Virus record (IMG/VR): IMGVR_UViG_3300009183_000092
DNA from: an uncultured virus (IMG/VR IMGVR_UViG_3300009183_000092)
Lineage: Duplodnaviria > Heunggongvirae > Uroviricota > Caudoviricetes
Direction: 5' to 3' (one strand)
DNA length: 20,000 bases
The translations under genes and the position numbers were made by a program. The first letter of the stretch is position 1; each line of letters opens with the position of its first letter. The notes beneath the pieces are model-generated. The model searched no databases and was not told where the DNA came from. It saw only the letters and a list, made by a program, of their open reading frames with translations. Shown in pieces: positions 454 through 20,000 of the stretch.

Positions 454-3400
454 TATTCAGGAGATAAGTATTATACAACTTCATCTTCAACTTTTACATT
501 AGGTAATGCAGGAACAATCATTGTTGGAACAGGATTGGCATATTCACCTGCTCAATCAATAATCGTAGTTTATGATGCCTCAAACTTTCAAGAGTGCGAG
601 GTTATAACTTATAATAGTGGAACAGGTTCATTGCAATTTGCAGCTCCAACAAGAACTGTAGGTAGTGGAACTTATTCATCATGGACAGTTAACTTGGATG
701 GTGCTAGTGGTGGTGATGGTAGCTCAGGTACTTCAGGTACTAGTGGGACATCTGCTACAGCCGGAACATCAGGGACAACAGGTACTTCTGGAAGCAGTGG
801 TACAACAGGTAGTAGTGGTACATCTGGAACTTCAGCAACAAGTGGCACTTCAGGTATTAATGGTACTTCAGGTACTAGCGGTACATCTGGGACAAGCGGT
901 ACAACTGGAACTAGTGGGAGTGCCGGAACATCAGGACGAAATGGTATTGATGGTTCATCAGGAGCTTCTATTGCTAACTGGTATGGTTCTTTTTCTGATA
1001 GTACAACACAAGTAATTACAGCAGCAAATACGCCAACTGCAATAACTTATAATACTGTTGAAATATCTAATGGTATTGCAATAAGTGGCTCTCAAATACA
1101 ATATCAACATACTGGAATATATGAAATAGGGTATTCATTACAAGTTGAAAAAACAAGTGGTGGAACTGCTGTTGATGTTGATATATTTTTAAGATTGAAT
1201 GGAACAAATATTATTAGAACAGATTCAATTTTATCTTTAGGTAGTAACAATGGTAAACAATTACCATTTGTTTCTAATATTTTTGAATTAAATGCTAATG
1301 ATTATCTAGAAGTATTATTTTGCTCTACAAGCTCGCATATTCAAATAACAGGAGTGCCAGCTCAAACAGTACCATATATTCACCCAGCAGCTCCTTCTAT
1401 TATTATTGTAACAAAACAAGTAGGGGTAGCTGTAGGTACAACATCAGGAACAAGCGGAACAACTGGGACTAGCGGTACAAGTGGAACCACAGGGACATCT
1501 GGCACTTCTGGAATTAATGGCACTTCTGGATCTAGCGGTACTAGTGGTAGTTCTGCAACTAGCGGAACTTCAGGTACAACTGGAACTTCTGGTAGTTCAG
1601 GTACAAGTGGTGGAACTGGTAGCGCAGGTACTTCTGGTACAAGTGGAACTTCTGGTTTAGCAGGCACAAATGGTACAAGCGGAACCACAGGGACATCGGG
1701 TTCTAGTGGTACTTCAGGTAGCGCAGGTACTAGTGGAACCACAGGTACATCAGGTACTTCAGCTACATCTGGAACGTCAGGTACATCAGGAACAGCTGGT
1801 ACTAGTGGTACGTCAGTATCAGTAACTGGGACAGCAGGTTATGTTGCATATTTTAATAGTTCATCAACTATTACAGGTAATTCAAATCTTTTTTGGGACA
1901 CAACAAATAACTATTTAGCAATAGGTAATCCAGCTACTCGTTTAGCACAATTACACGTTTATAATGCAAGTGCAGCAGCTTCAATGCTATTACAAACTAA
2001 TAGCACTACTGACTATTCAGAAATAGCAGTAAGGAATGATAGTTCAACGGCTACTTCTTATTTCAGACAATATTCAACGGCTGCAACAGGAAGTGATTTT
2101 GGTATATCAAGAGCAGGGTTAGCTTTATTTTTTAGTAACTATGCTACTAACTTTGCAATAGGTACAAGAAACGGAGGTGCTTTAATTTGGGGAACGGCTG
2201 ATACTGAAAGAATGAGAATTAATACTTCAGGTAACGTAGGTATAGGAAGTAGTAGCATTACAAATGGAACAACTTGGGGTGGTGGTTTGCAAACAAATTT
2301 ATTAAAATTATCTGCTGCAGGTTATCCTGCCTTAGAAATAAATACAACAAGTGATGGTGGTGGTTCTATACAATTTACTTATGGTACTAATTTGCCAAAC
2401 CAAGTAAGGGGATTTATTGGGTATAATAGCGGAGGTGGTACAGTTAATGAATTTTATTTATATAATTCAGCTTCAGGACCTTTAGTATTTGTAACTAACA
2501 CCACCGAAAAAATGAGAATAACTTCAGCGGGTAACGTATTAGTGGGAGCAACGGCAGCCGCCGCTTCAGTATTCCAATTCCAAGTTGGTAATGGAACGGC
2601 AGATACAAGAGCTTATTTTAATCCTTCAAATGCTTTTGCAATAGGGGTATCAAATTCAAGTGGTAACGCATATTATTTAGGAGTTGGAGCAAGTGGTTCT
2701 GCGGGTTCGTTTCAAATTTATAGTAATACTACGGGTAGTGCAAATTTAACAATTACTTCAGGTGGCAACGTAGGAATAGGAACAAGTTCGCCTAAAACAC
2801 TATTGTCTATTAATGGAGGAACAGGAGCATACCCAACATTGGGAACGAATGTTACTAGTTCATTAATGATAGCTAGAAATGATAATTTAATTGGAACATA
2901 TTTTGGTTATGCAAGTGATGGTAATGGTTGGATTCAACAAATGAGAAATGATAGTGCTACCGCATATAATTTAGTATTACAACCTGTTGGAGGTAACGTA
3001 GGTATAGGTACTACTCCACAATGGACATTATCAGTATTTAAAGCATTAGAAATAGATACAACAGGATTAATATATGCAGGTAGTGGTCAAATGGCTATAA
3101 CAAATAATGGATATTATGCTTCAGGTTGGAAATATAAGACAACAGATTATGCAACTAACTATACAACTGATGGCGGTACTCATGTTTGGTATAATGCACC
3201 AAGTGGAACGGCAGGTTCTGCATTAAGTTATGTAGAAAGAATGAGACTTAATTCGTCTGGAAATTTAGGAATAGGAACAAGCACACCAAACGGAAAACTA
3301 AACGTTTCAAATGGCGGTGCAGAAGGGATTGAATTTTGGGTGGTATCAGCTGCTGCAACTAACTTAATTCAATCTTATAATCGTTCAACAAGTGCTTGGA

Positions 3401-3984
3401 ATAGTTTAGAGTACAAAGCATTAGACCATATATTTTATGGTTCAGGAACTGAAAGAATGAGAATTACCAATGCAGGAAGATGTGAATTAAAATCAGATGG
3501 TTTTGTATCTCAAAAAGGAGCAAGTAATAGTGTTGGTGGTGGTTCTTTTATTGCAGTACAACAAGTAGGAACAGAAAGATGGATTTTGCAACAATTAAAT
3601 ACCTCTTATGGATTAGATTATTGGGCATATAATGGTACTAGTTGGAGTGTAATAGCAAGTATAAATGCATCAACAGGTGTTTATACTCCATTGTCAGACA
3701 TAAATAAAAAGAAAGACTTTGAGGATAGTACAATAGGTTTAAATGCTATATTAGGATTGAAGCCTACTTTATACCGTATGAAATCAGATGATACAGAAGG
3801 AAATAAAGAATTAGGATTTATTGCTCAAGAAGTAAATGAATTTATCCCTCAAGCATTTGTTGAAAGTGGTGATGAAGATAATAATTTTATAGGTTTAAAC
3901 TATAACGCAATAACCGCAGCTTTAGTAAAGTCAGTTCAAGAATTAAAAGCAGAAATAGAAGAATTAAAAGCTAAAATAAAATAA
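1..3984 (+). CDS. Tail fibre/adhesin, 5'-truncated by the window: Gly-X-Y (GTS) repeats, ERMRI..GNVGIG repeats, C-terminal peptidase S74 intramolecular chaperone
   Basis: Frame 1 is open from base 1 (ATDGTGGTSGTTGTSG...) into the listed 535..3984 ORF, so the true start is upstream. About six (ERMRI)xxxGNVGIG repeats. The C-terminus SDINKKKDFED...LKPTLY...LGFIAQEV...coiled coil is typical of S74 chaperones. Confidence 0.88.
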   Translation, partial: ATDGTGGTSGTTGTSGTDGTSGSSGTSGSSGTSGTSATSGSSGTSGTDGTGGTSGTSGTSATSGTDGSGGTSGTSGTSATDGTGGTSGTSGTSATSGTTGTSGTSGTSATDGTGGTSGTSGTSATSGTDGTSATSGTSGTSGTTGTSGSSGYSGDKYYTTSSSTFTLGNAGTIIVGTGLAYSPAQSIIVVYDASNFQECEVITYNSGTGSLQFAAPTRTVGSGTYSSWTVNLDGASGGDGSSGTSGTSGTSATAGTSGTTGTSGSSGTTGSSGTSGTSATSGTSGINGTSGTSGTSGTSGTTGTSGSAGTSGRNGIDGSSGASIANWYGSFSDSTTQVITAANTPTAITYNTVEISNGIAISGSQIQYQHTGIYEIGYSLQVEKTSGGTAVDVDIFLRLNGTNIIRTDSILSLGSNNGKQLPFVSNIFELNANDYLEVLFCSTSSHIQITGVPAQTVPYIHPAAPSIIIVTKQVGVAVGTTSGTSGTTGTSGTSGTTGTSGTSGINGTSGSSGTSGSSATSGTSGTTGTSGSSGTSGGTGSAGTSGTSGTSGLAGTNGTSGTTGTSGSSGTSGSAGTSGTTGTSGTSATSGTSGTSGTAGTSGTSVSVTGTAGYVAYFNSSSTITGNSNLFWDTTNNYLAIGNPATRLAQLHVYNASAAASMLLQTNSTTDYSEIAVRNDSSTATSYFRQYSTAATGSDFGISRAGLALFFSNYATNFAIGTRNGGALIWGTADTERMRINTSGNVGIGSSSITNGTTWGGGLQTNLLKLSAAGYPALEINTTSDGGGSIQFTYGTNLPNQVRGFIGYNSGGGTVNEFYLYNSASGPLVFVTNTTEKMRITSAGNVLVGATAAAASVFQFQVGNGTADTRAYFNPSNAFAIGVSNSSGNAYYLGVGASGSAGSFQIYSNTTGSANLTITSGGNVGIGTSSPKTLLSINGGTGAYPTLGTNVTSSLMIARNDNLIGTYFGYASDGNGWIQQMRNDSATAYNLVLQPVGGNVGIGTTPQWTLSVFKALEIDTTGLIYAGSGQMAITNNGYYASGWKYKTTDYATNYTTDGGTHVWYNAPSGTAGSALSYVERMRLNSSGNLGIGTSTPNGKLNVSNGGAEGIEFWVVSAAATNLIQSYNRSTSAWNSLEYKALDHIFYGSGTERMRITNAGRCELKSDGFVSQKGASNSVGGGSFIAVQQVGTERWILQQLNTSYGLDYWAYNGTSWSVIASINASTGVYTPLSDINKKKDFEDSTIGLNAILGLKPTLYRMKSDDTEGNKELGFIAQEVNEFIPQAFVESGDEDNNFIGLNYNAITAALVKSVQELKAEIEELKAKIK
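700..966 (+). repeat. Gly-X-Y (GTS) coding repeat block 2
   Basis: GASGGDGSSGTSGTSG...GIDGSSGA. Confidence 0.85.
1435..1815 (+). repeat. Gly-X-Y (GTS) coding repeat block 3
   Basis: GTTSGTSGTTGTSG...GTAGTSGTS. Confidence 0.88.
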
Positions 3985-3985
3985 A

Positions 3986-4357
3986 ATGAGTACAACTTAC
4001 AATTGGGTAATAAACCAAATGGACACAAAGCCTCAAGAAGGGCAATTAATGGATGTGGTAGTAACAGTACATTGGACAAGAACAGCAGAGCAATATGTAG
4101 GAGGTGAACCCATCTTAGTTTCTAGTTATGGAACTATGAATTGTACCACACCTAGTGCTACAGATTTTACAGCATACCCTGATTTAACACAAGCAGAAGT
4201 AAACTCCTGGCTTGATTCTGGGTTGGATGTGCCAACTATTGACTTGGGATTAGACAAACAAATTGAGAATATTATCAATCCACCGACTATAGTTTTGCCG
4301 CTACCTTGGATTCCTGAACCAACAACTACAACAACTACTGAGGCTCCTGTTGTTTAA
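3986..4357 (+). CDS. Conserved phage tail-fibre-associated protein (DUF7936-like)
   Basis: TYNWVINQMD..DVVVTVHW..YG..FTAYPDLTQAEVNSWL..LPLPW pattern, a family commonly found right after S74 tail fibres; family name from memory. Confidence 0.6.
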   Translation: MSTTYNWVINQMDTKPQEGQLMDVVVTVHWTRTAEQYVGGEPILVSSYGTMNCTTPSATDFTAYPDLTQAEVNSWLDSGLDVPTIDLGLDKQIENIINPPTIVLPLPWIPEPTTTTTTEAPVV

Positions 4358-4380
4358 TTAAATTAATTATACTACATTTG
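4350..4380 (+). promoter_or_regulatory. Bacteroidota sigma-A type promoter
   Basis: TTG(4350-4352)-20 nt-TACATTTG(4373-4380), 15 nt before the ATG at 4396. Confidence 0.6.
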
Positions 4381-4395
4381 TAAAAATAAAATTTT

Positions 4396-4578
4396 ATGAA
4401 TCAAGAGACAAAGCAATTACCAGTACCATCATTAACACCAGAACATGTTCAAGTATTAATGAATTATGTTAACGAACAATTACCAACTAAGTATGGTAAA
4501 GAAATCCTAGGATTTATTGAAAAAGTAGCATTGGAAGCTGAAAAAGCATCTCAAACAGAAGAAACACAAGCTAGTTAA
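4396..4578 (+). CDS. Small hypothetical protein (60 aa)
   Basis: Has its own promoter and an A-rich leader; stop codon overlaps the stop of the convergent GT gene. Confidence 0.65.
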   Translation: MNQETKQLPVPSLTPEHVQVLMNYVNEQLPTKYGKEILGFIEKVALEAEKASQTEETQAS

Positions 4579-6590
4579 ACACTAGCTTTTTTTATTTCCT
4601 CTATTACCATATCGGCTGTTATTGACCTTTGACATTCAAAGTTCTTATTTCTTGGACACCAATTCCAAAATGGATCTAATTTAATATTAGGGTCATTCCA
4701 ACAGCTATTACACACATCAGGCTTAGTTACTCGGTAGCAATCAAATTCATGGTCTGCTTCGGTAAAATTAGAAATCATGACTACTTTTTGATTCAAAGCC
4801 CATGCTAACCAAGATAATCCACTAGATAATCCAATAAACAATTTAGCCCCTTTAATTACTTCCATTGTATTTTCTATAGATGTATCACTTATTTTATGAC
4901 AATTATCAAATGGGTTATCCTCTTTAGATACATTAACTATATTTTTATACCCTGAATCATATAAATAGTTTATAACCTTTTGCCATCCTTCCCTAGTCCA
5001 AAACTTGCACTCCATTGTAGAATTTGTGGCAATTGCAATATAATCTGGTGCTTTATTACCAAGTATCTCGGTTTTAGTTTTAAGCCTAGGTTTAACTTCT
5101 TCAAATTCTAATCCAAGTATATTGGTAGCAGCTTGCTGTAGTGGTATCGTATTGCATCTTACAGGCTCTTTATTCTCATCCCACTTCCATCCAACCCTAT
5201 ATAAGGCATAACAATTAACCGTAGCCCCAGGCTCAACTAGCTCTAATTCTGGGTAGTCCAGTATTTTATTCCAAAAACTGGACATTACCACATGGCAATT
5301 ATGCTTTTCTTGGAATTTTAAGGCATATCCACTCCATGCAATTGTGTCACCTAGACTCTTACTATCAATTACTATAAAAACCCTCTTATTGGTCAGATTT
5401 AGGGTGTTTTTGTAGATTAAATAACCATCCTGCCAAACCTTAGCTGTCCATGCGGTGAAATATTGCCTGTTTAACTTAACCCAAGAGTTTGCTTTTATTG
5501 TGTTTTCGTAAGCAATACTACCTTTTTCATCTAAAAATTGAACTTTGAAATTACTATCAGAAATACCTTTAATTTCTAAAAATGGGCCATCAACAAAATG
5601 CTGTGTAATTTTTACCTTTTGTTTTTGAATAGGTAATTCTAATAATTTCTTATAAGCTGTTTCATGAGCAAAAGCAAATATTGGTGTGGTATTATCTGTA
5701 GGTACATTGTATGTACATTTTAATGTACGTAAATCTGTATCTATTGGCTGTATGTATTTGGTAAACATATCGCCATATTGAGGTAAGTTTCTAGCTATGA
5801 TAGGTAAACCAAAACTTATGGCTTCGCGTAAAACTAATGGGTTACATTCCCAAGTGCTATTAAACATGAAAATATCAGCCATCTCCATAAAAGTATCAAC
5901 ATCTTTTCTTTCTCCCCATACCTTTACATTATCTGGTATATCTTTCATCAATGGTTCCCAATAATCTTTAAAGTTCCCAGCTTGGGAACCAACAAAATGA
6001 AATGTCATGTTAGGATATTTGCGAGCAATCTCAAGTCCTTCTCCTTGATTTTTACCCCTAGTCCATAAACCCACATTAAGAACATGTTTACCATCTTTTA
6101 CTGCATTTACTTCTTGTTTATCTATTGGATATTGTATTGTAACAAACTTAGATTCCATATTAGAAAATGTTTGCTCATGGTATGGCGTACAAAAAGCATA
6201 TAAATCAGGATAAAATAATTTTTCTTCATCAGGATTAAATGAAATATCATGACACGTTTCTACTATTCTATACTTTCTATTAGGATTATAAAGTTTAGCT
6301 ACCATCTGTCTATCTAATCTTTCTGATGGTTCGTCTATATGAATGATGTCTGGTTGCCACTGCTCAATTACTTTAAATAGCTCCATTTTATCCTCATACA
6401 AAGTAGTAAAGTTTTCTAATAGTAAACTTTTTATGGCATCACGTTGTACCACAAAATCCAAGCTATGACATTGATATTCAACTACATAATATTCATTTTC
6501 GGTATAATCTTTAAGACTTTGTATTCTTTTAAGTATAAATTGCGGGCATCCCCCCGTACTAAGATGCGGTGCTAGAAATAATATTTTCAT
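4575..6590 (-). CDS. Fusion glycosyltransferase: N-terminal GT4 (GT-B) plus C-terminal Aah/TibC-type O-heptosyltransferase (GT9-like)
   Basis: GT4 motifs MKILFLAPHLSTGG, KNQ, ADIF..S.WECNPLVLREA..GLPII. C-terminal half has SKSLGDTIAW, FIGLSSGLSWLAWAL and CNSCWND..WCPR..FECQRSIT. Confidence 0.8.
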   Translation of the reverse strand: MKILFLAPHLSTGGCPQFILKRIQSLKDYTENEYYVVEYQCHSLDFVVQRDAIKSLLLENFTTLYEDKMELFKVIEQWQPDIIHIDEPSERLDRQMVAKLYNPNRKYRIVETCHDISFNPDEEKLFYPDLYAFCTPYHEQTFSNMESKFVTIQYPIDKQEVNAVKDGKHVLNVGLWTRGKNQGEGLEIARKYPNMTFHFVGSQAGNFKDYWEPLMKDIPDNVKVWGERKDVDTFMEMADIFMFNSTWECNPLVLREAISFGLPIIARNLPQYGDMFTKYIQPIDTDLRTLKCTYNVPTDNTTPIFAFAHETAYKKLLELPIQKQKVKITQHFVDGPFLEIKGISDSNFKVQFLDEKGSIAYENTIKANSWVKLNRQYFTAWTAKVWQDGYLIYKNTLNLTNKRVFIVIDSKSLGDTIAWSGYALKFQEKHNCHVVMSSFWNKILDYPELELVEPGATVNCYALYRVGWKWDENKEPVRCNTIPLQQAATNILGLEFEEVKPRLKTKTEILGNKAPDYIAIATNSTMECKFWTREGWQKVINYLYDSGYKNIVNVSKEDNPFDNCHKISDTSIENTMEVIKGAKLFIGLSSGLSWLAWALNQKVVMISNFTEADHEFDCYRVTKPDVCNSCWNDPNIKLDPFWNWCPRNKNFECQRSITADMVIEEIKKASV

Positions 6591-12995: not shown

Positions 12996-13000
12996 ATATT

Positions 13001-13198
13001 CTAATTATTTTTTATTTTATTATAATTATTAAAATCAACAGCTAATTTTATAATATTTAAAAAATCTGGGCTCTCCTCTAATCCAATAGCAAGTAAAAAT
13101 CCTAAATCCTCCATTTCTCCATCAATTTCAATTTTAGATTCATTTTCAGTTAATTCCAAATAAATTTTTGCATTTTTTGGTTTGTAGTCATATTTCAT
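13001..13198 (-). CDS. Hypothetical protein
   Basis: ORF track; tight packing in the minus-strand operon. Confidence 0.65.
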   Translation of the reverse strand: MKYDYKPKNAKIYLELTENESKIEIDGEMEDLGFLLAIGLEESPDFLNIIKLAVDFNNYNKIKNN

Positions 13199-13208
13199 TT
13201 TTTTTAAT

Positions 13209-13400
13209 TTAATCTAGTTTAATAATTAATTCATAAATATCAATGCCATTTGGTTTTACTTCCGAGTTCCATATTGCTAACATTCTTTTTCTATGATAAA
13301 CACTATGAAACTTATATTCCCTAATTAGTTTACCGCTCTTGAATAATTGCATTGTCCCCTTTATTTTGCTTCCCCAGTCTTTCGGCCTCTTGTTCATCAT
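13209..13400 (-). CDS. Hypothetical protein
   Basis: ORF track; operon context. Confidence 0.6.
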   Translation of the reverse strand: MMNKRPKDWGSKIKGTMQLFKSGKLIREYKFHSVYHRKRMLAIWNSEVKPNGIDIYELIIKLD

Positions 13401-13512
13401 AAATTTTTTTTAATTCTTTATAATCTGCAATTAATTTATTGATCCTTTCTCTCAAGGTTTCGTTTTCCAATTTAAGGAGATAGTTTTGCCCCATTTCATA
13501 TTGGTTTCTCAT
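13330..13512 (-). CDS. Small coiled-coil protein
   Basis: LKLENETLRERINKL; TAATG coupling with the upstream gene. Confidence 0.6.
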   Translation of the reverse strand: MRNQYEMGQNYLLKLENETLRERINKLIADYKELKKIYDEQEAERLGKQNKGDNAIIQER

Positions 13513-13748
13513 TAGTTGTCGGTTTCTGTGTTTGACAATATAAACTTCCTATCGGGCAATGGGTTAGCAGCCCATTTATTATATAAATCGTACATTTCCT
13601 CGTATCTCTCTTGATTATACCATGCATTGTGGTATATTTCTGCTATTATCATTTGCCTTTCGTATGGGGTGAATTCTGCAAATGTTGTGAAAGTTTGTGG
13701 TTGTGTTGGTGTTCCCAATACTTGTTCGCTGATTGATTTGTTTCCCAT
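13512..13748 (-). CDS. Hypothetical protein
   Basis: ORF track; A-rich leader. Confidence 0.65.
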   Translation of the reverse strand: MGNKSISEQVLGTPTQPQTFTTFAEFTPYERQMIIAEIYHNAWYNQERYEEMYDLYNKWAANPLPDRKFILSNTETDN

Positions 13749-13765
13749 GTTTTTTTGTTTTGTGT

Positions 13766-13969
13766 TTAAAAATTTACATCTACTGTTAATACGTGTACTT
13801 TACCTACTCTATTATACTTTATTACTTCCGGCAATATCATGTTATTCTTTATACGATATTTTATAGCCTGCTGTGTTAATGAAGCATTAGGATTCTTTCT
13901 GTTTGACCTGAAATAATCAGGACTAATTTTTTCTGAATATTCCTTAACACTAATTTGTTTCGTTTTCAT
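13766..13969 (-). CDS. Small basic putative DNA-binding protein (HTH/excisionase-like)
   Basis: ISVKEYSE...LTQQAIKYRIKNN...RVGKVHVL resembles a winged HTH. Confidence 0.5.
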   Translation of the reverse strand: MKTKQISVKEYSEKISPDYFRSNRKNPNASLTQQAIKYRIKNNMILPEVIKYNRVGKVHVLTVDVNF

Positions 13970-14162
13970 TTTTTATTTCAATTGTTTTAATAGATTCTTT
14001 GAAAGTTTCTTGTTCATTGTTAGTAATAATAGTATGAAGATAATCTTCCACTTTTGCAAGGTCAGAGCTAGCAGAATTCATTATATATCTGCCATCCTTT
14101 TCAATGTAATAAAGTACATCACCGGTAAAAGACGTTTCTTTTACGATTTCAAATTTTGCCAT
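13950..14162 (-). CDS. Hypothetical protein (start MAKFEIV, ATG 14162)
   Basis: Start trimmed from the ORF track to avoid overlap; A-rich leader. Confidence 0.65.
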   Translation of the reverse strand: MAKFEIVKETSFTGDVLYYIEKDGRYIMNSASSDLAKVEDYLHTIITNNEQETFKESIKTIEIKNENETN

Positions 14163-14175
14163 GTTTTTTGGTTTT

Positions 14176-14418
14176 TTAGTTATTAAAATATTCATTAAAT
14201 ATTGATTCAAATACGCTTAGTTTATTTGACGATGCTGAATTTATCTCTTCGGTAAATTCTTCCCATTGGTCATCATCTAAGTATATATCCCATTTCTCGG
14301 CAAGGGATTGCCACATCACAATAAGATCTTCCATGTCCAAGTATGGAAAGTTATTGTCTTTAAACATTCGGTGCATTGTGTCGCAAAGCATTGCTTCTTT
14401 TGTTAGTTCTTTACCCAT
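14176..14418 (-). CDS. Acidic hypothetical protein
   Basis: ORF track. Confidence 0.65.
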   Translation of the reverse strand: MGKELTKEAMLCDTMHRMFKDNNFPYLDMEDLIVMWQSLAEKWDIYLDDDQWEEFTEEINSASSNKLSVFESIFNEYFNN

Positions 14419-14540
14419 TTTATTATTCTTTTAAGTTCAAAAAATATGTGTGCAGTGAGGTATAAAATAATAGCTAATGGCAAACCAATAATTAACAAAT
14501 GCAAAAATTGGAGCATAGTAATGATTGTTGATTTAATCAT
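14403..14540 (-). CDS. Small membrane protein (45 aa; not in ORF track)
   Basis: MIKSTIITMLQFLHLLIIGLPLAIILYLTAHIFFELKRIIKWVKN, directly downstream of a promoter. Confidence 0.6.
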   Translation of the reverse strand: MIKSTIITMLQFLHLLIIGLPLAIILYLTAHIFFELKRIIKWVKN

Positions 14541-14555
14541 GTGTGTCGGTTTTGG

Positions 14556-14586
14556 TAAAATTAGCATTTATTTTTATTACAGCAAA
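14556..14586 (-). promoter_or_regulatory. Bacteroidota-type promoter
   Basis: TTTG(14586-14583)-19 nt-TAATTTTA(14563-14556), one mismatch to TAnnTTTG. Confidence 0.5.
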
Positions 14587-14630
14587 ATAAATTAAATTAA
14601 TTAATTTGTTAGTTGGCGCGTTCTGTGATT

Positions 14631-14819
14631 TTAGATAGAGGACAGCGCTTCCCAATAATGGTTTTCTACTTCTATGTTAAGAGCCTCTTTTAAGCCTTTT
14701 ATTTTACGCTCTACCGGTATGATATTCTTTACCTTGCCATCAGTCAGTAGCTTGTTTAATGCCTTAATTTGGCTTTTTAATTTGTTGATTTTTTGAGATG
14801 GTGTTAATGGTTTTTTCAT
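14631..14819 (-). CDS. Basic coiled-coil hypothetical protein
   Basis: ORF track. Confidence 0.65.
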   Translation of the reverse strand: MKKPLTPSQKINKLKSQIKALNKLLTDGKVKNIIPVERKIKGLKEALNIEVENHYWEALSSI

Positions 14820-14850
14820 GGTTTTTTATTTTGTTTAATATATAAAATAT

Positions 14851-14894
14851 GTGCGTTGATATCGTATGCGCACCCCACGTTAACCCAACGATAT
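14851..14894 (-). ncRNA. Unnamed intergenic structured RNA (H-type pseudoknot candidate)
   Basis: AUAUCGU-UGGGUUAACGUGGG-GUGCG-CAU-ACGAUAU-CAA-CGCAC: interleaved 7-bp and 5-bp helices, GC-rich island in an AT-rich spacer. Confidence 0.45.
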
Positions 14895-14910
14895 ATAATT
14901 AGATAAAATA

Positions 14911-15195
14911 TTAAAAGTTGGATAGGTAGTCAACTGCGGTGTAACTAACAAGAATCTTTTGGTCATCATCCAAGGATGCCAATGGGATTGCTCGGCTCCA
15001 CGATTCGCAATAGTCATATACTTGCGCCATGTCAGAGGTTGTAGTGTATTGCACACCATCACTTCCATAATTACATGAGTCACAATAAGCCTCAGCTAAA
15101 TGTTTGCTAACGAATGCATCACATTTGAATGCCTCAGCGCCATCGCAATCGGTTCCATAACCAATCACGAAATAAATTCCAATAGCTTTAGTCAT
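14911..15195 (-). CDS. Hypothetical protein
   Basis: ORF track; ATG 13 nt after HHR1. Confidence 0.65.
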   Translation of the reverse strand: MTKAIGIYFVIGYGTDCDGAEAFKCDAFVSKHLAEAYCDSCNYGSDGVQYTTTSDMAQVYDYCESWSRAIPLASLDDDQKILVSYTAVDYLSNF

Positions 15196-15208
15196 AAGTT
15201 TTATTTTT

Positions 15209-15264
15209 GGTTAATACGAGCTATTTCTAGCTCGTTTCAAGGATTCACCTATCATCAGTTAACC
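15209..15264 (-). ncRNA. Type I hammerhead ribozyme HHR1
   Basis: GGUUAA-CUGAUGA-UAGG[UGAAU]CCUU-GAAA-CGAGCUA[GAAA]UAGCUCG-UA^UUAACC; GUA site, cut between 15215 and 15214; U.U at the base of stem II. Confidence 0.85.
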
Positions 15265-15452
15265 TATGCGATAATATCATCGTGTAGCGCCTCTAATTCA
15301 TTAATCCATCCATTGTACGATATGTCACGACCATCCTCTAGGACAACACATTCAAATGTGCTTTCTAGGTCATCGTTCCACCCATTGGTAATATTTTCTT
15401 GTATTTTAGCTAGGATTTGTTCTAGTCTGATTTTGATTTCTAAATTGGTCAT
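15264..15452 (-). CDS. Hypothetical protein
   Basis: ORF track; the TAG stop overlaps the first G of HHR1. Confidence 0.65.
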   Translation of the reverse strand: MTNLEIKIRLEQILAKIQENITNGWNDDLESTFECVVLEDGRDISYNGWINELEALHDDIIA

Positions 15453-15463
15453 GTTTTTTAATT

Positions 15464-15661
15464 TTAAATAAATCTAATAATAAGATTATTGTTATCAAAT
15501 ATGTTTATGTTAAACATTCGTTCAAATTTTCTTATATCAATGGAATCTCGTTTTTGCCGAATTGATTCCGATATGAATTCATCATCGTTACATGTTAAGC
15601 AACTAAAATTGTCATCCATTTTATCTACATCAATTGAATAGACTTTAATTTGTTCTATCAT
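15464..15661 (-). CDS. Hypothetical protein
   Basis: ORF track. Confidence 0.65.
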   Translation of the reverse strand: MIEQIKVYSIDVDKMDDNFSCLTCNDDEFISESIRQKRDSIDIRKFERMFNINIFDNNNLIIRFI

Positions 15662-15665
15662 AAAA

Positions 15666-15887
15666 TTATTTTAATTGGTTTCTTAATAAATAGGATTCTA
15701 TTTTGGCATGCATGATATCAAATTGTTCCTGCATGAATTCGGTGTATCTGCTACCACCATCGCCATCATCCTCCCAAATTGTTTCAGTTGTATACTCATA
15801 GGTTTGCTTAATAAATAAATCAGCTAGCTCGCAGGCTAATTCATTAATATAGAAAGTTCCTTTTGGTGTTGCGTTTAATGTTTCCAT
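15666..15887 (-). CDS. Hypothetical protein
   Basis: ORF track. Confidence 0.7.
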   Translation of the reverse strand: METLNATPKGTFYINELACELADLFIKQTYEYTTETIWEDDGDGGSRYTEFMQEQFDIMHAKIESYLLRNQLK

Positions 15888-15888
15888 T

Positions 15889-16272
15889 TTATTTAATTTT
15901 AAATTTTGTAAATTGTTTATCTAATTCAAATGCATTCATCCAAGGTAAACTGATAGAATCATCCACAAAATAATTTGTAGGATTACCTAGAATCTCGCAG
16001 TTCCCAATTTCATCAATTTGTTGGGTGCAATATTCTTTGACATCATCATTACCCCAAGTAAGCAAATATCCAATACCCCATATCTCGCAATATGGCTCAT
16101 GATTTGCACTTTCTTGATGGTAGTTGACATCTAAGTCAGTTCCATCCTTTAATTGAAAAGAATGCCAAAAATCACCGGTATCACCGGAGGTTAAATCAAA
16201 CATAAAAACTTGTCCTAGATAATGCAAAGTCAATACTTTGTTATCATAGTCAATAACGAATTTTTTTTCCAT
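15889..16272 (-). CDS. Hypothetical protein
   Basis: ORF track; ATG 14 nt after HHR2. Confidence 0.7.
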   Translation of the reverse strand: MEKKFVIDYDNKVLTLHYLGQVFMFDLTSGDTGDFWHSFQLKDGTDLDVNYHQESANHEPYCEIWGIGYLLTWGNDDVKEYCTQQIDEIGNCEILGNPTNYFVDDSISLPWMNAFELDKQFTKFKIK

Positions 16273-16286
16273 TTTAATTTTGTTTT

Positions 16287-16338
16287 GGTTAATACCGGAT
16301 TGCTCCGGTTTCGGAAATTTATTCCTCGTCAGTTAACC
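16287..16338 (-). ncRNA. Type I hammerhead ribozyme HHR2
   Basis: GGUUAA-CUGACGA-GGAA[UAAAU]UUCC-GAAA-CCGGA[GCAA]UCCGG-UA^UUAACC; cut between 16293 and 16292. Confidence 0.95.
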
Positions 16339-16340
16339 TT

Positions 16341-16604
16341 TTAAATTGTCAATTGCCTATCATTATAGAATGGCTTTAAATCCTCATAGAATGCCTCAAA
16401 TTTTTCTTTATCTACTATGTTGGTGCAATCCACTACAAATTTATCATAGTAGCTTAATTCGTCTCTAATTGCATCATGTAGATATTCAGTTTGTTTTTTA
16501 TCACATTCGTTAACTAACATCTTGAATAATTCATCTGCATCAAATTCCTCTAGGAGATTGCTAATCCATCGCTCTAATTTTTTAGAAGGTATTTTATTTT
16601 TCAT
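16341..16604 (-). CDS. Hypothetical protein
   Basis: ORF track; stop 2 nt before HHR2. Confidence 0.7.
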   Translation of the reverse strand: MKNKIPSKKLERWISNLLEEFDADELFKMLVNECDKKQTEYLHDAIRDELSYYDKFVVDCTNIVDKEKFEAFYEDLKPFYNDRQLTI

Positions 16605-16605
16605 T

Positions 16606-16716
16606 TTACTTATTTTTTTTGAATAATATCATGTAGCATATCTTAATACCAATGGCAATGAATATGCCAAATAATACTAAGTCAAAAATTGCAGTTGCGG
16701 TTTGTAGTGTGTTCAT
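16606..16716 (-). CDS. Small single-TM protein (36 aa; not in ORF track)
   Basis: MNTLQTATAIFDLVLFGIFIAIGIKICYMILFKKNK fills the gap between two genes. Confidence 0.6.
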   Translation of the reverse strand: MNTLQTATAIFDLVLFGIFIAIGIKICYMILFKKNK

Positions 16717-16726
16717 GTTGTTTAAT

Positions 16727-17143
16727 TTAAAATTTTATAAATTGATAATCGTATTCACCTTGATATGCTCCAATAAAAATTGAATCATCGCCTAAGTTTA
16801 TTTCGTCAATCTCTTCGGGGTCTGACAATGTAATTGCGCCACTAATGAGTTTATGAAATTCTTTTTTACTTATAATTGGATGTACTTCATTTACATTGCA
16901 AAATATCATTACACCATAAAGTTTTTCAGCATTGCGAATAAAAGTAAATGAGCCTTGGTCATCACCTTTATCATATGTAATACATCCAATACTTGATTCA
17001 ATATTTTCAGCATTGGTTTGAATGTCTACTAAAGATTCCAAATATTTTTGGGCCTCAGAATCACTAGTAAATTCTTTAATGTAAGCTAGATTATCACTTG
17101 AATAACCTTCTCCGTTCCATGTTTCAGTAATTACGTATTTCAT
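16727..17143 (-). CDS. Hypothetical protein
   Basis: ORF track. Confidence 0.7.
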   Translation of the reverse strand: MKYVITETWNGEGYSSDNLAYIKEFTSDSEAQKYLESLVDIQTNAENIESSIGCITYDKGDDQGSFTFIRNAEKLYGVMIFCNVNEVHPIISKKEFHKLISGAITLSDPEEIDEINLGDDSIFIGAYQGEYDYQFIKF

Positions 17144-17161
17144 GTTGTTTAATTTAATAGT

Positions 17162-17395
17162 TTAATAATTATCTAATTCAGTCAAAATTTCGCCATCAGA
17201 TGAGATAATGCCATTATCTATCAACTGAGATGCGAAACGGCCATAAAAGCCTTGTAATTGCCAACAATCACCGGTTTTGACGAGATATGCCCATGCGCCT
17301 ATTTTTTCTCTAGGTGTAGGCTCATCCTCGCAAAAACCCTCAATAATTGAACAAGCACGATAAGAGTCCATTGGTGTTAATGTTAATGTTTCCAT
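17162..17395 (-). CDS. Conserved small phage protein (WQLQGFYGR motif)
   Basis: LVKTGDCWQLQGFYGRFA; the ORF-track TTG start lies inside HHR3, so ATG 17395 is preferred. Confidence 0.75.
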   Translation of the reverse strand: METLTLTPMDSYRACSIIEGFCEDEPTPREKIGAWAYLVKTGDCWQLQGFYGRFASQLIDNGIISSDGEILTELDNY

Positions 17396-17409
17396 GTTTA
17401 TAATTTTTT

Positions 17410-17460
17410 GGTTAAGACCACCCAAAGGTGGTTTCGGCCATTAGGCCTCGTCAGTTAACC
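17410..17460 (-). ncRNA. Type I hammerhead ribozyme HHR3
   Basis: GGUUAA-CUGACGA-GGCC[UAAU]GGCC-GAAA-CCACC[UUUG]GGUGG-UC^UUAACC; cut between 17416 and 17415. Confidence 0.95.
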
Positions 17461-18354
17461 TGCATAAATTGTCTCAAATAATCTCTCATCCAATGTCCTT
17501 TGTTGGTCAAAGGTTTTTTTCAATTTACCATGAATCAATTCATTGAATGCATTGTATACTATCCATTGGTTAGGTCTAGTATTCAATTGCTTTGTCTCGC
17601 GCTCTACAACATCAAAGATGAATCGTGCATTGGCGCTAGGCTCCGGATTCTTATCAGATGCCTCATATTTAAACAATCCTAGAGTCTTAGCAGTTACTTT
17701 AACGTAATCCTCTAAGTTGTATACCGGTCTCTCTGCAAGCACCTCAAATTTGCGCTTAAGGGTAAAGAATTCATTGTCCATGAACAATTTTACAATCTCA
17801 TCCAATTTAGGCATTACGATGTCGGTAATGGCTCCGCTATGCTTTACTGAGAATCCTATGTGAGTCTGAGCTACGTGTAATCCATTGTCACATACTTTGC
17901 GCCAAAATCCAAAGCTACCACTAGTCTTGCAACTGCCATCGTAACTATTAACGAATCGTAACATAGGGCGTAAAATATCTTTCTCACCTTTAACCTCTAC
18001 TTTGTATCGGTCATCTGCTAGGATATAATCCACTACAAAAGAGCGATTGTCACGATTAATACTACGTTGTTGGTAATAAATGTCCGCATCAATTAACTTC
18101 TCCTCTACTCCTAGGAAGAAAATCTCATTAGGCAAATGGCCATAAGAATTAGATACTACGTTCACGATTTGATTCTCACAAACGATAGCATTCTCCAAAC
18201 CCCTTCTAGACGGGATTCCGGTTAGTTTCTCCAATGGGACTACCTCAGATGTCACTAGAACATCATCTTGTCTAGAATTGGCTAAAAGGTGGCTTAATTT
18301 TGATTCTGCCTCTTGACTAGTTTTTGCTGAAAATTTGTCTTGTAATTGATTCAT
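17455..18354 (-). CDS. DUF932 (DUF945) family phage/plasmid protein
   Basis: VVSNSY..LPN..F, LRFVNSYDGS, FWRKVCDNG..., H.G and W.VYNAFNE motifs. Confidence 0.85.
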   Translation of the reverse strand: MNQLQDKFSAKTSQEAESKLSHLLANSRQDDVLVTSEVVPLEKLTGIPSRRGLENAIVCENQIVNVVSNSYGHLPNEIFFLGVEEKLIDADIYYQQRSINRDNRSFVVDYILADDRYKVEVKGEKDILRPMLRFVNSYDGSCKTSGSFGFWRKVCDNGLHVAQTHIGFSVKHSGAITDIVMPKLDEIVKLFMDNEFFTLKRKFEVLAERPVYNLEDYVKVTAKTLGLFKYEASDKNPEPSANARFIFDVVERETKQLNTRPNQWIVYNAFNELIHGKLKKTFDQQRTLDERLFETIYAG

Positions 18355-18393
18355 AAAATTAGGTCAGTTTTTTATGTGGTGGCTCCACATTAT

Positions 18394-18445
18394 GGTTAAG
18401 ACCATCCGGAGATGGTTTCGCATATTGAATGCTCCTCAGTTAACC
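18394..18445 (-). ncRNA. Type I hammerhead ribozyme HHR4
   Basis: GGUUAA-CUGAGGA-GCAU[UCAAU]AUGC-GAAA-CCAUC[UCCG]GAUGG-UC^UUAACC; cut between 18400 and 18399. Confidence 0.95.
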
Positions 18446-18449
18446 TTTG

Positions 18450-18698
18450 TTACGCTAGTCTAGGTAAAAAGTCCTCATCATCCTCTCTTAATCCATTGTA
18501 ATCGTGTGCAATTGTTTCAATGATTATTAAAGGAGTCTCAGCATTGTTTACCAATTCCTTCAGATTGTCTATGTAAGGACATAGCTTAACTGCTATATCC
18601 ATTTGTGTACGAGGTGATGCTAAATCGCCAACATACTTTTCAATGATTAATAACGTGTCACATAATTGTTCATACTTGTTGCTTAATAATTGTTCCAT
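18450..18698 (-). CDS. Hypothetical protein
   Basis: ORF track; flanked by HHR5 and HHR4; C-terminal HDYNGL....FLPR. Confidence 0.7.
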   Translation of the reverse strand: MEQLLSNKYEQLCDTLLIIEKYVGDLASPRTQMDIAVKLCPYIDNLKELVNNAETPLIIIETIAHDYNGLREDDEDFLPRLA

Positions 18699-18716
18699 GA
18701 TTGTAAATTTTTAATT

Positions 18717-18769
18717 GGTTAAGACCTGCCTAAGCAGGTTTCGGATATTGAATCCATCTTCAGTTAACC
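18717..18769 (-). ncRNA. Type I hammerhead ribozyme HHR5 (extra U after CUGAAGA)
   Basis: GGUUAA-CUGAAGA-U-GGAU[UCAAU]AUCC-GAAA-CCUGC[UUAG]GCAGG-UC^UUAACC; cut between 18723 and 18722. Confidence 0.92.
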
Positions 18770-18773
18770 TAGT

Positions 18774-18890
18774 TTAAAATCTTCTATCGTCTTGTTTATT
18801 GTGTTGTATCAATGTCTTAATGAATACAAATAATACAATAGAAATAAGGGTGAACGCGCCAATTATTATGGCATCAATTAAATTTATCAT
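18774..18890 (-). CDS. Small single-TM protein (38 aa; not in ORF track)
   Basis: MINLIDAIIIGAFTLISIVLFVFIKTLIQHNKQDDRRF; stop 4 nt before HHR5. Confidence 0.6.
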   Translation of the reverse strand: MINLIDAIIIGAFTLISIVLFVFIKTLIQHNKQDDRRF

Positions 18891-18911
18891 TTTATCTAGT
18901 ATTAAAAGTTA

Positions 18912-19133
18912 TTAAATGCAATCAGCAAACATTGTAGCAATGCTCATTGATTCGTATGTTTTAATGTTGGTTTGTTTTTCAATATCCAATGCTAATCCGA
19001 TTAAATTTCTAAGTACTTGTTTTTTTGCATCAATACAATCCATTTTTTCAGATTTCCACTCAAGGATGTTTGAACCAATAGATAATAATACTTGTTTTAC
19101 TTGATTTTCGTCAGTTAGGTTAATTTGATACAT
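18912..19133 (-). CDS. Hypothetical protein, first gene of the operon
   Basis: ORF track; ATG 11 nt after HHR6. Confidence 0.65.
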   Translation of the reverse strand: MYQINLTDENQVKQVLLSIGSNILEWKSEKMDCIDAKKQVLRNLIGLALDIEKQTNIKTYESMSIATMFADCI

Positions 19134-19144
19134 ATTATATGTTA

Positions 19145-19200
19145 TTAGGTTTCGCCATTCTGTGGCTCTTCAGTACTGCGAATATTAGCAGTAGACCTAA
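19145..19200 (-). ncRNA. Type III hammerhead ribozyme HHR6
   Basis: UUAGG-UC^UACUGC[UAAUAUUC]GCAGUA-CUGAAGA-GCCA[CAGAA]UGGC-GAAA-CCUAA; cut between 19194 and 19193. Confidence 0.93.
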
Positions 19201-19605: not shown

Positions 19606-19638
19606 CTAAGGTAGTACATTATTTTATATTTGAGCAAA
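19606..19638 (-). promoter_or_regulatory. Main leftward (early) promoter, Bacteroidota type
   Basis: TTTG(19638-19635)-21 nt-TACCTTAG(19613-19606), one mismatch to TAnnTTTG, immediately followed by the hairpin and boxA. Confidence 0.6.
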
Positions 19639-20000
19639 TTAAATAAGTTTTTTTATGATTTTTTCAAGTCTTAACATTTCTTTCACAAATGCCATGCTAT
19701 GGCTTTATTGCGCATTTTAAGACGATTCTAGACACCCCAATTGTTTTTGATATAATTACCAAGGATGCCCCAAGATAATTTAAATTTGAGCAAATTAGAT
19801 TTTTAATTAATACATAACTCATTGACCAAACTAAATCCTTTAGCAATACTAATTCCTTTAGCATCATGCCCATCTCTACCACATCCCCCCCCTTCCTTAA
19901 CATACCAACCAACATATAACCAATGCAAATAAGGTAAGCAATTGCAAGACACCATGACCATAACCATGTCCATGTCCCAACCCCATAAACCAACGCCAAC

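Follow-up and report, generated by a model that had tools for sequence, protein, structure and literature searches.

A covarying pseudoknot-type RNA at the end of a hammerhead array in uncultured lake phages and its possible role as a transcription terminator

The intergenic spacer analyzed here contains an uncatalogued RNA motif of about 35 nt, with two covarying helices and a U-run behind them, which is confined to one clade of uncultured lake phages. The helices interleave without having any base in common, and the comparison of related sequences supports a compact H-type pseudoknot as the natural reading of the motif. Concerning its function, the reading preferred here, tentatively and at somewhat less than an even chance, is that of a pseudoknot-closed, probably leaky, intrinsic terminator and 3′-end cap, which would end a left-end early operon punctuated by hammerheads. 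The probability given neither to this nor to the other readings weighed below goes to the lack of any function, or to something else.

The window, i.e., the whole stretch of 20,000 nucleotides that was analyzed, belongs to an uncultured virus of the Caudoviricetes (IMG/VR record IMGVR_UViG_3300009183_000092). It is A/T-rich phage DNA (33.5% G+C), which encodes tail fibre, endolysin and HNH proteins and contains, in 13000–19200, a run of small genes on the minus strand. Five intergenic gaps of this run are occupied by type I hammerheads that start with GGUUAAC-UGANGA and end with UUAACC (Table 1). Clusters of hammerheads around prophage genes were described in 2011 (PMC3088659). A simple parse of the copies present in the window and its relatives gave stems II and III of at least 3 bp in 43 of 48 distinct hammerheads. 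Those of the window fell below the Rfam gathering thresholds, and only one of them gave, in E-value mode, a weak match to RAGATH-1-hammerhead (23.2 bits). The heptamer GGTTAAC occurs seven times in the window, always on the minus strand, versus 2.29 expected, and a count of seven was reached by 2 of 200 shuffles.

Three observations on the array are described separately. The last hammerhead has an unusual core surround (CUGAUGA-U ... U-GAAA), with a U-U pair at the base of stem II. The orthologues in L001 and L009 retain this surround, so this hammerhead may be a variant with slow or regulated activity. Directly 3′ of the cleavage site of the 18445–18394 hammerhead, and before the gene of a 299-aa protein, the minus strand forms a hairpin, UGUGGAGCCACCACA (18390–18355), also kept in L004, L007 and L009, which could be a 5′ stabiliser of the released message. 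Finally, from a promoter-like motif at 19638 to the first gene there are about 480 nt of the minus strand (19620–19140) with no convincing ORF and with a G+C content above that of the surroundings. This stretch, for which Rfam gave no match, may form a structured leader RNA. At its end stands a type III-looking hammerhead (approximately 19200–19145, core 19173–19149), with a predicted cut just 5′ of the first gene.

Table 1. Positions in the window of the type I hammerheads, of the parts of the element and of the flanking genes.
Feature	Position	Strand	Remarks
Type I hammerhead	18769-18717	minus	
Type I hammerhead	18445-18394	minus	
Type I hammerhead	17460-17410	minus	
Type I hammerhead	16338-16287	minus	
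Last type I hammerhead of the array	15209..15264	minus	HHR1 of the first-pass annotation
Upstream gene, 94 aa	14911..15195	minus	No family match; lineage-specific; between last hammerhead and element
Outer arm AUAUCGU of the first-pass annotation	14888..14894	minus	Pairs with 14867-14861 in the window only; outside the conserved element
5′ tail GGUUAAC	14879..14885	minus	Equals 5′ strand of hammerhead stem I plus core C; last two bases (AC) open S1
Helix S1, 5′ strand	14876..14880	minus	ACGUG in the window; ACGAG in most relatives
Loop L1, GG	14874..14875	minus	Invariant, also in the diverged copies L141-L144
Helix S2, 5′ strand GUGCG	14869..14873	minus	Inside the loop of the S1 hairpin
Helix S1, 3′ strand	14862..14866	minus	UACGA in the window
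Loop L3	14856..14861	minus	A-rich, 4-6 nt, final base always A
Helix S2, 3′ strand CGCAC	14851..14855	minus	
Invariant A, then U-rich tract	14838..14850	minus	AUAUUUUAUAUAU in the window; U5-U7 in most relatives
Downstream gene, 62 aa, lysine-rich	14631..14819	minus	Starts 31 nt past S2; no promoter-like motif between

On the minus strand, 14894–14851 reads exactly as quoted in the first-pass annotation, and the three complementarities drawn there (AUAUCGU/ACGAUAU, GUGCG/CGCAC and, as an alternative, CGUUG/CAACG) are all present in the window. Equally correct were the identity of GGUUAAC with the first 7 nt of the five type I hammerheads and the lack of a hammerhead core, as CUGANGA...GAAA gave four pattern matches in the window and none in 14820–14910. 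This interval is the 91-nt spacer, with the 94-aa gene on one side and the lysine-rich 62-aa gene on the other. The energy of its minus-strand fold, computed with ViennaRNA, which cannot score pseudoknots, did not surpass that of shuffled sequence (z = +0.63; 150 of 200 shuffles were at least as stable). The fold of the plus strand (z = −2.14) rests on A/T-rich flanks that, by eye, are common only to the window and to L079.

Relatives were obtained using as an anchor the neighbouring 299-aa protein (PHROG 21518), which led to 15 viral contigs. In 9 of these 15, conservation as seen by blastn was limited to the core of the spacer, and in 6 of those 9 it directly adjoins a homologue of a 62-aa gene that, in the window, precedes the last hammerhead. 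With a regular expression, each of the 14 viral contigs long enough to contain the element gave one copy and no more. A further 38 A/T-rich metagenome contigs, and one contig binned into a bacterial MAG, came from pattern scans. Pattern matches were regarded as due to chance, and dropped, when the locus exceeded 40% G+C (7 of 21 in viral contigs, 29 of 67 in metagenomes and 32 of 33 in species genomes), and the identical contigs L043, L053 and L075 (42% G+C) were set aside together with L119. The alignment obtained (A1) contained 29 distinct sequences from all sources. The patterns behind the metagenome matches fixed the 5′ octamer, GGG, GCG, ACGC and one A, and left the varying columns free, so the invariance of the octamer and of GGG, GCG and ACGC is shown by the 15 protein-anchored loci only. 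Columns 17–18, in L1, were forced by the pattern from L037 onwards, not in the 15 protein-anchored loci.

Both helices are maintained in this alignment, with 99.3% of 290 cells paired and three pairs that change on both sides. S2 (columns 19–23 with 37–41) is 100% paired in the 29 rows; at its pair 19/41, 20 rows have G-C, 7 have A-U and 2 have G-U, and at its pair 20/40, 28 rows have U-A and one has A-U. S1 (ACGNG/YNCGU; columns 12–16 with 26–30) is 98.6% paired; at its pair 15/27, 23 rows have A-U and 6 have U-A, at pair 16/26, 19 have G-U and 10 have G-C, and at pair 12/30, 27 have A-U and 2 are unpaired. The covariation score of the two-helix structure was reached by none of 500 column shuffles, and sliding the partners by 1–3 columns, as a control, left 11–58% of the cells paired. 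The independent covariation events are few (about four, over three pairs), and this weighs against the terminator. All three covarying pairs also vary among the 11 distinct protein-anchored rows, so they are not a product of the search patterns. The G-U pairs assign the fold to the gene-sense RNA, since on the opposite strand each of them would turn into a C-A mismatch. So, it can be said that the homologues which the first-pass annotation had proposed to collect do exist, and that both helices covary among them, which favours the terminator reading.

The pseudoknot first drawn for the spacer has to be modified in part. Its type, with two interleaved helices of which GUGCG/CGCAC (S2) is one, is retained; the conserved partner is the inner 5-bp S1 and not the 7-bp helix AUAUCGU/ACGAUAU, whose four testable pairs were paired in 39.7% of the cells, with a mismatch already in the nearest relative, L079. 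Moreover, a 3-nt loop crossing a 7-bp helix seems sterically unlikely. The alternative CGUUG/CAACG, though present in the window, is by eye not conserved and competes with S2. In the conserved element, both helices have 5 bp, and the loops measure 2 nt (L1), 1–2 nt (the variable S1–S2 junction) and 4–6 nt (L3), sizes that look compatible with the coexistence of the two helices; we infer that S1 and S2 form at once, rather than as alternative hairpins. Taken alone, the hairpins have mean energies of −3.8 and −5.4 kcal/mol and neither is stable, which would explain selection for both together and is a further point for the terminator. The copy in the window has the weakest S1 (four pairs, one of them G-U, plus the mismatch A14862/A14880, found only there and in L079) and an interrupted U-tract, two features that speak against termination.

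No Rfam family accounts for the element. The Rfam search, run both at gathering thresholds and by E-value and with the RAGATH motifs that the first-pass annotation had advised including, gave nothing relevant to the element in the window, the spacer, the spacer of a relative or seven distant loci. There was no Rfam match for 151 bases around the spacer even at E up to 10, nor a match of the spacer to the hammerhead covariance models (types I–III and RAGATH-1) at E up to 10. The remaining ribozyme models of Rfam 15 (twister, twister-sister, pistol, hatchet, HDV-like, hairpin and others) were likewise unmatched, with nothing above noise (sRNA, miRNA and snoRNA models at 10–20 bits), and the riboswitch models preQ1, SAM-II/V, fluoride and guanidine-III gave no match. 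A resemblance to pistol and guanidine-III RNAs was considered and discarded because their Rfam models do not match. Concerning other searches, blastn of 14300–15500 against phage GenBank records gave no match, no relatives of the 94-aa protein were found among the viral contigs, and an exact 17-mer did not occur in them. Among the papers matched by searches on phage and intergenic hammerheads and RAGATH motifs, and on phage intrinsic terminators with pseudoknots, none dealt with an element of this type. Solitary CRISPR repeat units reportedly act as RNA anti-CRISPRs, and a mimic of a CRISPR repeat was considered and rejected: the exact pattern had 33 matches in 185,579 species genomes, none of them forming an array; one (L107) is a phage-like contig of the phage family of the element and the rest are single chance matches in G+C-rich DNA.

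With a covariance model, five whole or near-whole records gave a single copy each (E 2e-12 to 4e-8), and so did the window (61.5 bits; next best, 15.5 bits). In all 14 hammerhead-carrying sequences (the window and 13 of the 14 loci L001–L014), every GGTTAAC-type hammerhead lies upstream of the element; L013 has no hammerhead of this type. The single copy downstream of the whole array speaks for the terminator reading. The element stands about 5–6 kb from the left end of a linear phage genome of about 67 kb. Also in favour of the terminator is genome G003, bounded by perfect, G/T-rich inverted terminal repeats of at least 120 nt (L152 1–120, L155 end), in which five GGTTAAC-type hammerheads (967–4705) and the element (5304) all lie within the first 5.3 kb. 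As judged by eye, the G/T-rich last 170 bases or so of the window (19830–20000) are probably the end of the linear 67-kb genome, and the ‘ORFs’ at 19697–20000 are probably not genes.

A promoter-like motif of the TAATTTGCTCAAAT type occurs twice before the array (window 19794 and 19638; G003 227 and 395; G001 1686 and 1851). In most relatives it recurs 60–190 nt past the element, within the 100–190 nt that separate the latter from a conserved lysine-rich gene, homologous to the downstream gene of the window. It is also found before the next gene, that of a membrane protein (window copy 14586–14581, minus strand). The motif is probably an early promoter of this phage group, and its placement on both sides of the array and element argues for a terminator between them. 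It resembles the −7 box of Bacteroidota and stands before gene blocks, further copies being located at 5430 in G003 and 6290 in G001. Another motif, TTATCTAA, was rejected as a promoter, its occurrences in the window being without pattern. As a separate observation, nine loci (L008, L046, L061, L063, L081, L082, L086, L091 and L096) have, 25–60 nt past the element and before the promoter-like motif, a second conserved hairpin of the CCCC-UAACA-GGGG type, which covaries with UCCA/UGGA forms and precedes GGCAAAA and a U-run; the window does not have it.

What follows S2 is equally regular. After the invariant A and 0–2 further bases, a T-rich run begins, i.e., 1–3 nt past S2, and the 8 nt next to S2 on its 3′ side contain at least 4 T in all 25 distinct variants, as compared to 0 of 53 distinct hammerheads, whose 3′ flanks are A-rich, not U-rich. 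The longest T run is of 5–7 in 19 of the 25 variants, of 4 in four and of 3 in two. T was not required by the search patterns. Considered together, the constant U-rich tract, the single copy at the end of the array and the promoter-like motif that comes next in most relatives indicate transcript-end formation. The first-pass annotation had spoken of a processing or stabilising RNA in the same system, and this option fits; the element is indeed a distinct, conserved and structured member of the hammerhead gene-boundary system.

The mechanism proposed is as follows. The early operon would start at the two promoter-like motifs near the genome end and would be split gene by gene by the type I hammerheads; the element would be its 3′ boundary and a factor-independent terminator. 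The S1 hairpin would fold first. On leaving the polymerase, CGCAC would pair with the GUGCG displayed in the S1 loop, and S2 would thus shut directly before the U-tract, like a terminator hairpin. The upstream message, once released or processed, would keep a knotted 3′ end resistant to 3′ exonucleases. The GGUUAAC tail, dispensable for the fold, may have been inherited from hammerhead stem I or be kept uniform by recombination with it. The same phage is seen to have a canonical, two-way hairpin-plus-U terminator (window 4568–4588), which lends some further weight to the proposal. On the other hand, S2 as a terminator helix, although G+C-rich and covarying, has 5 bp only and encloses 9–13 nt, which is outside the canonical geometry, and a terminator scan did not flag the element.

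The main difficulty for the terminator reading is that, in the window, L079, L010–L014 and L141–L144, the next gene on the same strand starts 22–31 nt past the element, the distance from S2 being 25–31 nt in the window, L079 and L010–L014, with no promoter-like motif between them. As a full terminator would silence this adjoining gene, termination must be partial there, or the function different. These four lineages speak for a cap or punctuation mark without termination, a reading that is considered unlikely and yet deserves some weight. A stable knot would stand after the stop codon, a host endonuclease would cut the A/U-rich strand that follows, and the knot would block 3′ exonucleases; host enzymes plus knot would then do what a hammerhead does alone. 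The knot may in addition keep the upstream coding RNA from pairing with the A/U-rich start of the next gene. The spacing agrees with such a cap, since in most relatives the stop codon UAG overlaps the element or lies 0–3 nt before it, with S1 starting about 5 nt past the stop; and 7 of 22 loci have, after the 299-aa gene, hairpins or small pseudoknot-capable hairpins without a U-run. However, the U-rich tract kept in 25 of 25 variants would be superfluous for a mere cap, and a general cap should recur at many junctions, while the element is single-copy and always the last.

A further reading is a regulated attenuator, in which the choice between termination and read-through would be set by the ribosome, a phage or host protein, or a small ligand, so timing the genes behind; this is regarded as improbable. 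The conserved loop residues (the GG of L1, the terminal A of L3 and the A after S2), present also in the diverged copies L141–L144, suggest a specific tertiary fold rather than any stable hairpin, and they fit an attenuator. The spacing fits as well, as a ribosome that pauses on the overlapping stop codon would hide S1 and leave S2 free, and so does the location of the element at a boundary between early gene blocks. Nevertheless, the lack of riboswitch or protein-binding RNA matches in Rfam (151 bases, E up to 10) is unfavourable, L2 is variable, and a binding partner is purely hypothetical. The flanking genes, moreover, differ by lineage, so the element is not the autoregulatory site of one gene; an autoregulatory operator of the downstream gene was discarded on this same ground.

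Orthologous junctions show what may take the place of a hammerhead. The gap after the orthologous 299-aa gene was read by eye in 22 loci, the classes being a judgement of the eye: a type I hammerhead is present in 5 loci (window, L001, L004, L008 and L009), a hairpin followed by a U-run in 8 (including L002, of the window's own clade), a hairpin without a U-run in 3, a diverged copy of the element followed by U6 and without GGUUAAC in 2 (L141 and L142), and another small hairpin, with a loop able to pair with the preceding bases, in 4 (L137, L138, L139 and L151). Hammerheads, terminator-like hairpins and small knots thus replace one another at one junction, which accords with the terminator reading. 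In L002–L007 the element itself comes directly after the orthologous 62-aa gene, where the window has its last hammerhead. The covariance model also matched L143 and L144, which carry a copy of the L141/L142 type. The GGUUAAC tail is found in all 15 protein-anchored elements (window and L001–L014) and is absent from the diverged copies L141–L144, and in contigs of the latter type no hammerhead was found by regular expression. It is the GGUUAAC hammerheads that the tail accompanies, and not the fold.

Two side observations belong to these junctions. In a distant 149-kb phage (L150, 10829–10845), a bare GGTTAA-GTAC-TTAACC hairpin, followed by a canonical terminator, occupies the slot in which relatives carry a hammerhead overlapping the stop codon of the 299-aa gene. 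This has the look of a hammerhead core that disappeared, or that was never acquired. The clade of L137, L138, L139 and L151 has hammerheads with a different stem I (GUGUAA/UUACAC) and, both after the 299-aa gene and after hammerheads, a small hairpin, GCGGU ... ACCGC; its loop, AGG(U), is complementary to a preceding (A)CCU. It is possibly another tiny pseudoknot family, placed about 10 nt before start codons.

The first-pass annotation had put forward the spacer as a candidate novel ribozyme. In such a reading, a new small self-cleaving or end-joining RNA would have replaced the hammerhead core and kept the GGUUAA arm, for instance for docking the UUAACC 5′-hydroxyl end from the upstream hammerhead; the knot would cleave itself, or else ligate or lock the last message's ends. 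The exchange with a hammerhead in L002–L007, the GGUUAAC common to element and hammerheads, the conserved pseudoknot with its invariant loop bases and the lack of an Rfam entry would be compatible with this. Nothing indicates self-cleavage, however, and the argument from the common slot is weakened by the plain hairpins at the 299-aa junction: since these are found there, some followed by a U-run and some not, a slot of this kind does not call for catalysis. Besides, few unpaired bases are invariant in a core that measures only about 30 nt, the arm lies outside the conserved fold, as the diverged copies without GGUUAAC show, and the element is single-copy, unlike the repeated hammerheads. This is held to be the least probable of the readings.

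The term ‘cassette end’, also used in the first-pass annotation, finds some support at the DNA level. From one lineage to another, a different gene separates the last hammerhead from the element: it encodes 94 aa in the window, 108 aa in L001 and 176/178 aa in L008/L009, and L002–L007 have no gene there. In addition, contigs of a related strain, from three runs labelled RNA-Seq but probably DNA (88% likeness to the window), join 18435 to 18760, with the loss of one hammerhead-plus-82-aa-gene unit and 11 letters common at the joint, which identifies GGTTAAC(TGA) as a recombination point. As another observation, related-strain contigs are without the 65-aa gene (15464–15661; window 15453–15665). 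All this shows that single early genes are gained and lost rapidly, and recombination at GGTTAAC(TGA) may be enough to hold the tail of the element identical to hammerhead stem I. A role mainly at the DNA level, with GGTTAAC as an acceptor or end repeat for the short-homology gain and loss of hammerhead-plus-gene units, and the rest as a passenger or a relic of a decayed hammerhead, can draw on the varying gene, on the joint and on the bare hairpin of L150. It is given little credence, because the compensatory changes and the G-U pairs possible on one strand only show selection on the RNA fold, the U-tract is conserved and the diverged copies do without GGTTAAC; recombination at the repeat can be a side effect of the common sequence.

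Compared to known systems, the closest likeness is with intrinsic terminators such as that of the T7 early operon, which is processed by RNase III and closed by an early intrinsic terminator. In common are the G+C-rich helix closing just before a U-rich tract, and the place at the end of a processed early operon near the leading end of the genome, with a promoter-like motif next in most relatives. The differences are that the helix of the element is limited to 5 bp and has its 5′ strand within the loop of a second conserved hairpin, which makes the closure a pseudoknot, that there are conserved loop bases, that the next gene is promoterless in some lineages, and that termination is here a proposal. 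To our knowledge, no intrinsic terminator closed by a pseudoknot has been described.

Classical H-type pseudoknots include those that stimulate frameshifting and the knot in the leader of phage T4 gene 32. The element resembles them in its two interleaved short helices, short first loop and A-rich last loop, and in its distance of about 5 nt from a codon where ribosomes stop; unlike them, it is not tied to one regulated gene. Frameshift knots differ further, as the element has no slippery site and in-frame stops follow in most variants, which makes recoding unlikely. In fact, recoding by readthrough or frameshift was rejected: in the common UAGUUAGGUUAAC form two frames stop at once, and the variants have neither a common slippery site nor an extended frame. 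Stem-loops that stabilise 3′ ends, and intercistronic hairpins, block exonucleases, and with them the element shares a stable structure directly behind the stop codon, inside or ending a polycistronic message; it differs in being a pseudoknot and not a hairpin, in its single copy and in its conserved U-tract. Finally, the clustered hammerheads of phages and prophages, as described in PMC3088659, have the same gene context, a slot just after a stop codon and GGUUAAC, and are interchangeable with the element at orthologous junctions. The element, in contrast, has no CUGANGA/GAAA core, no three-way junction and no model match, and its 3′ flank is U-rich instead of A-rich.

The purpose of clustered phage hammerheads has been open since 2011; message processing was suggested in PMC3088659, without the question being settled. 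That in this phage group a hammerhead, a hairpin with a U-run and a small covarying pseudoknot can each occupy the same gene junctions suggests that the job common to them is the making and protecting of the 3′ end of a message, and the natural swaps at these junctions constitute a test set for this idea. If termination does depend on the knot, the known forms of factor-independent terminators would be extended, and the element would be the first documented intrinsic terminator with a stop helix closed as a pseudoknot.
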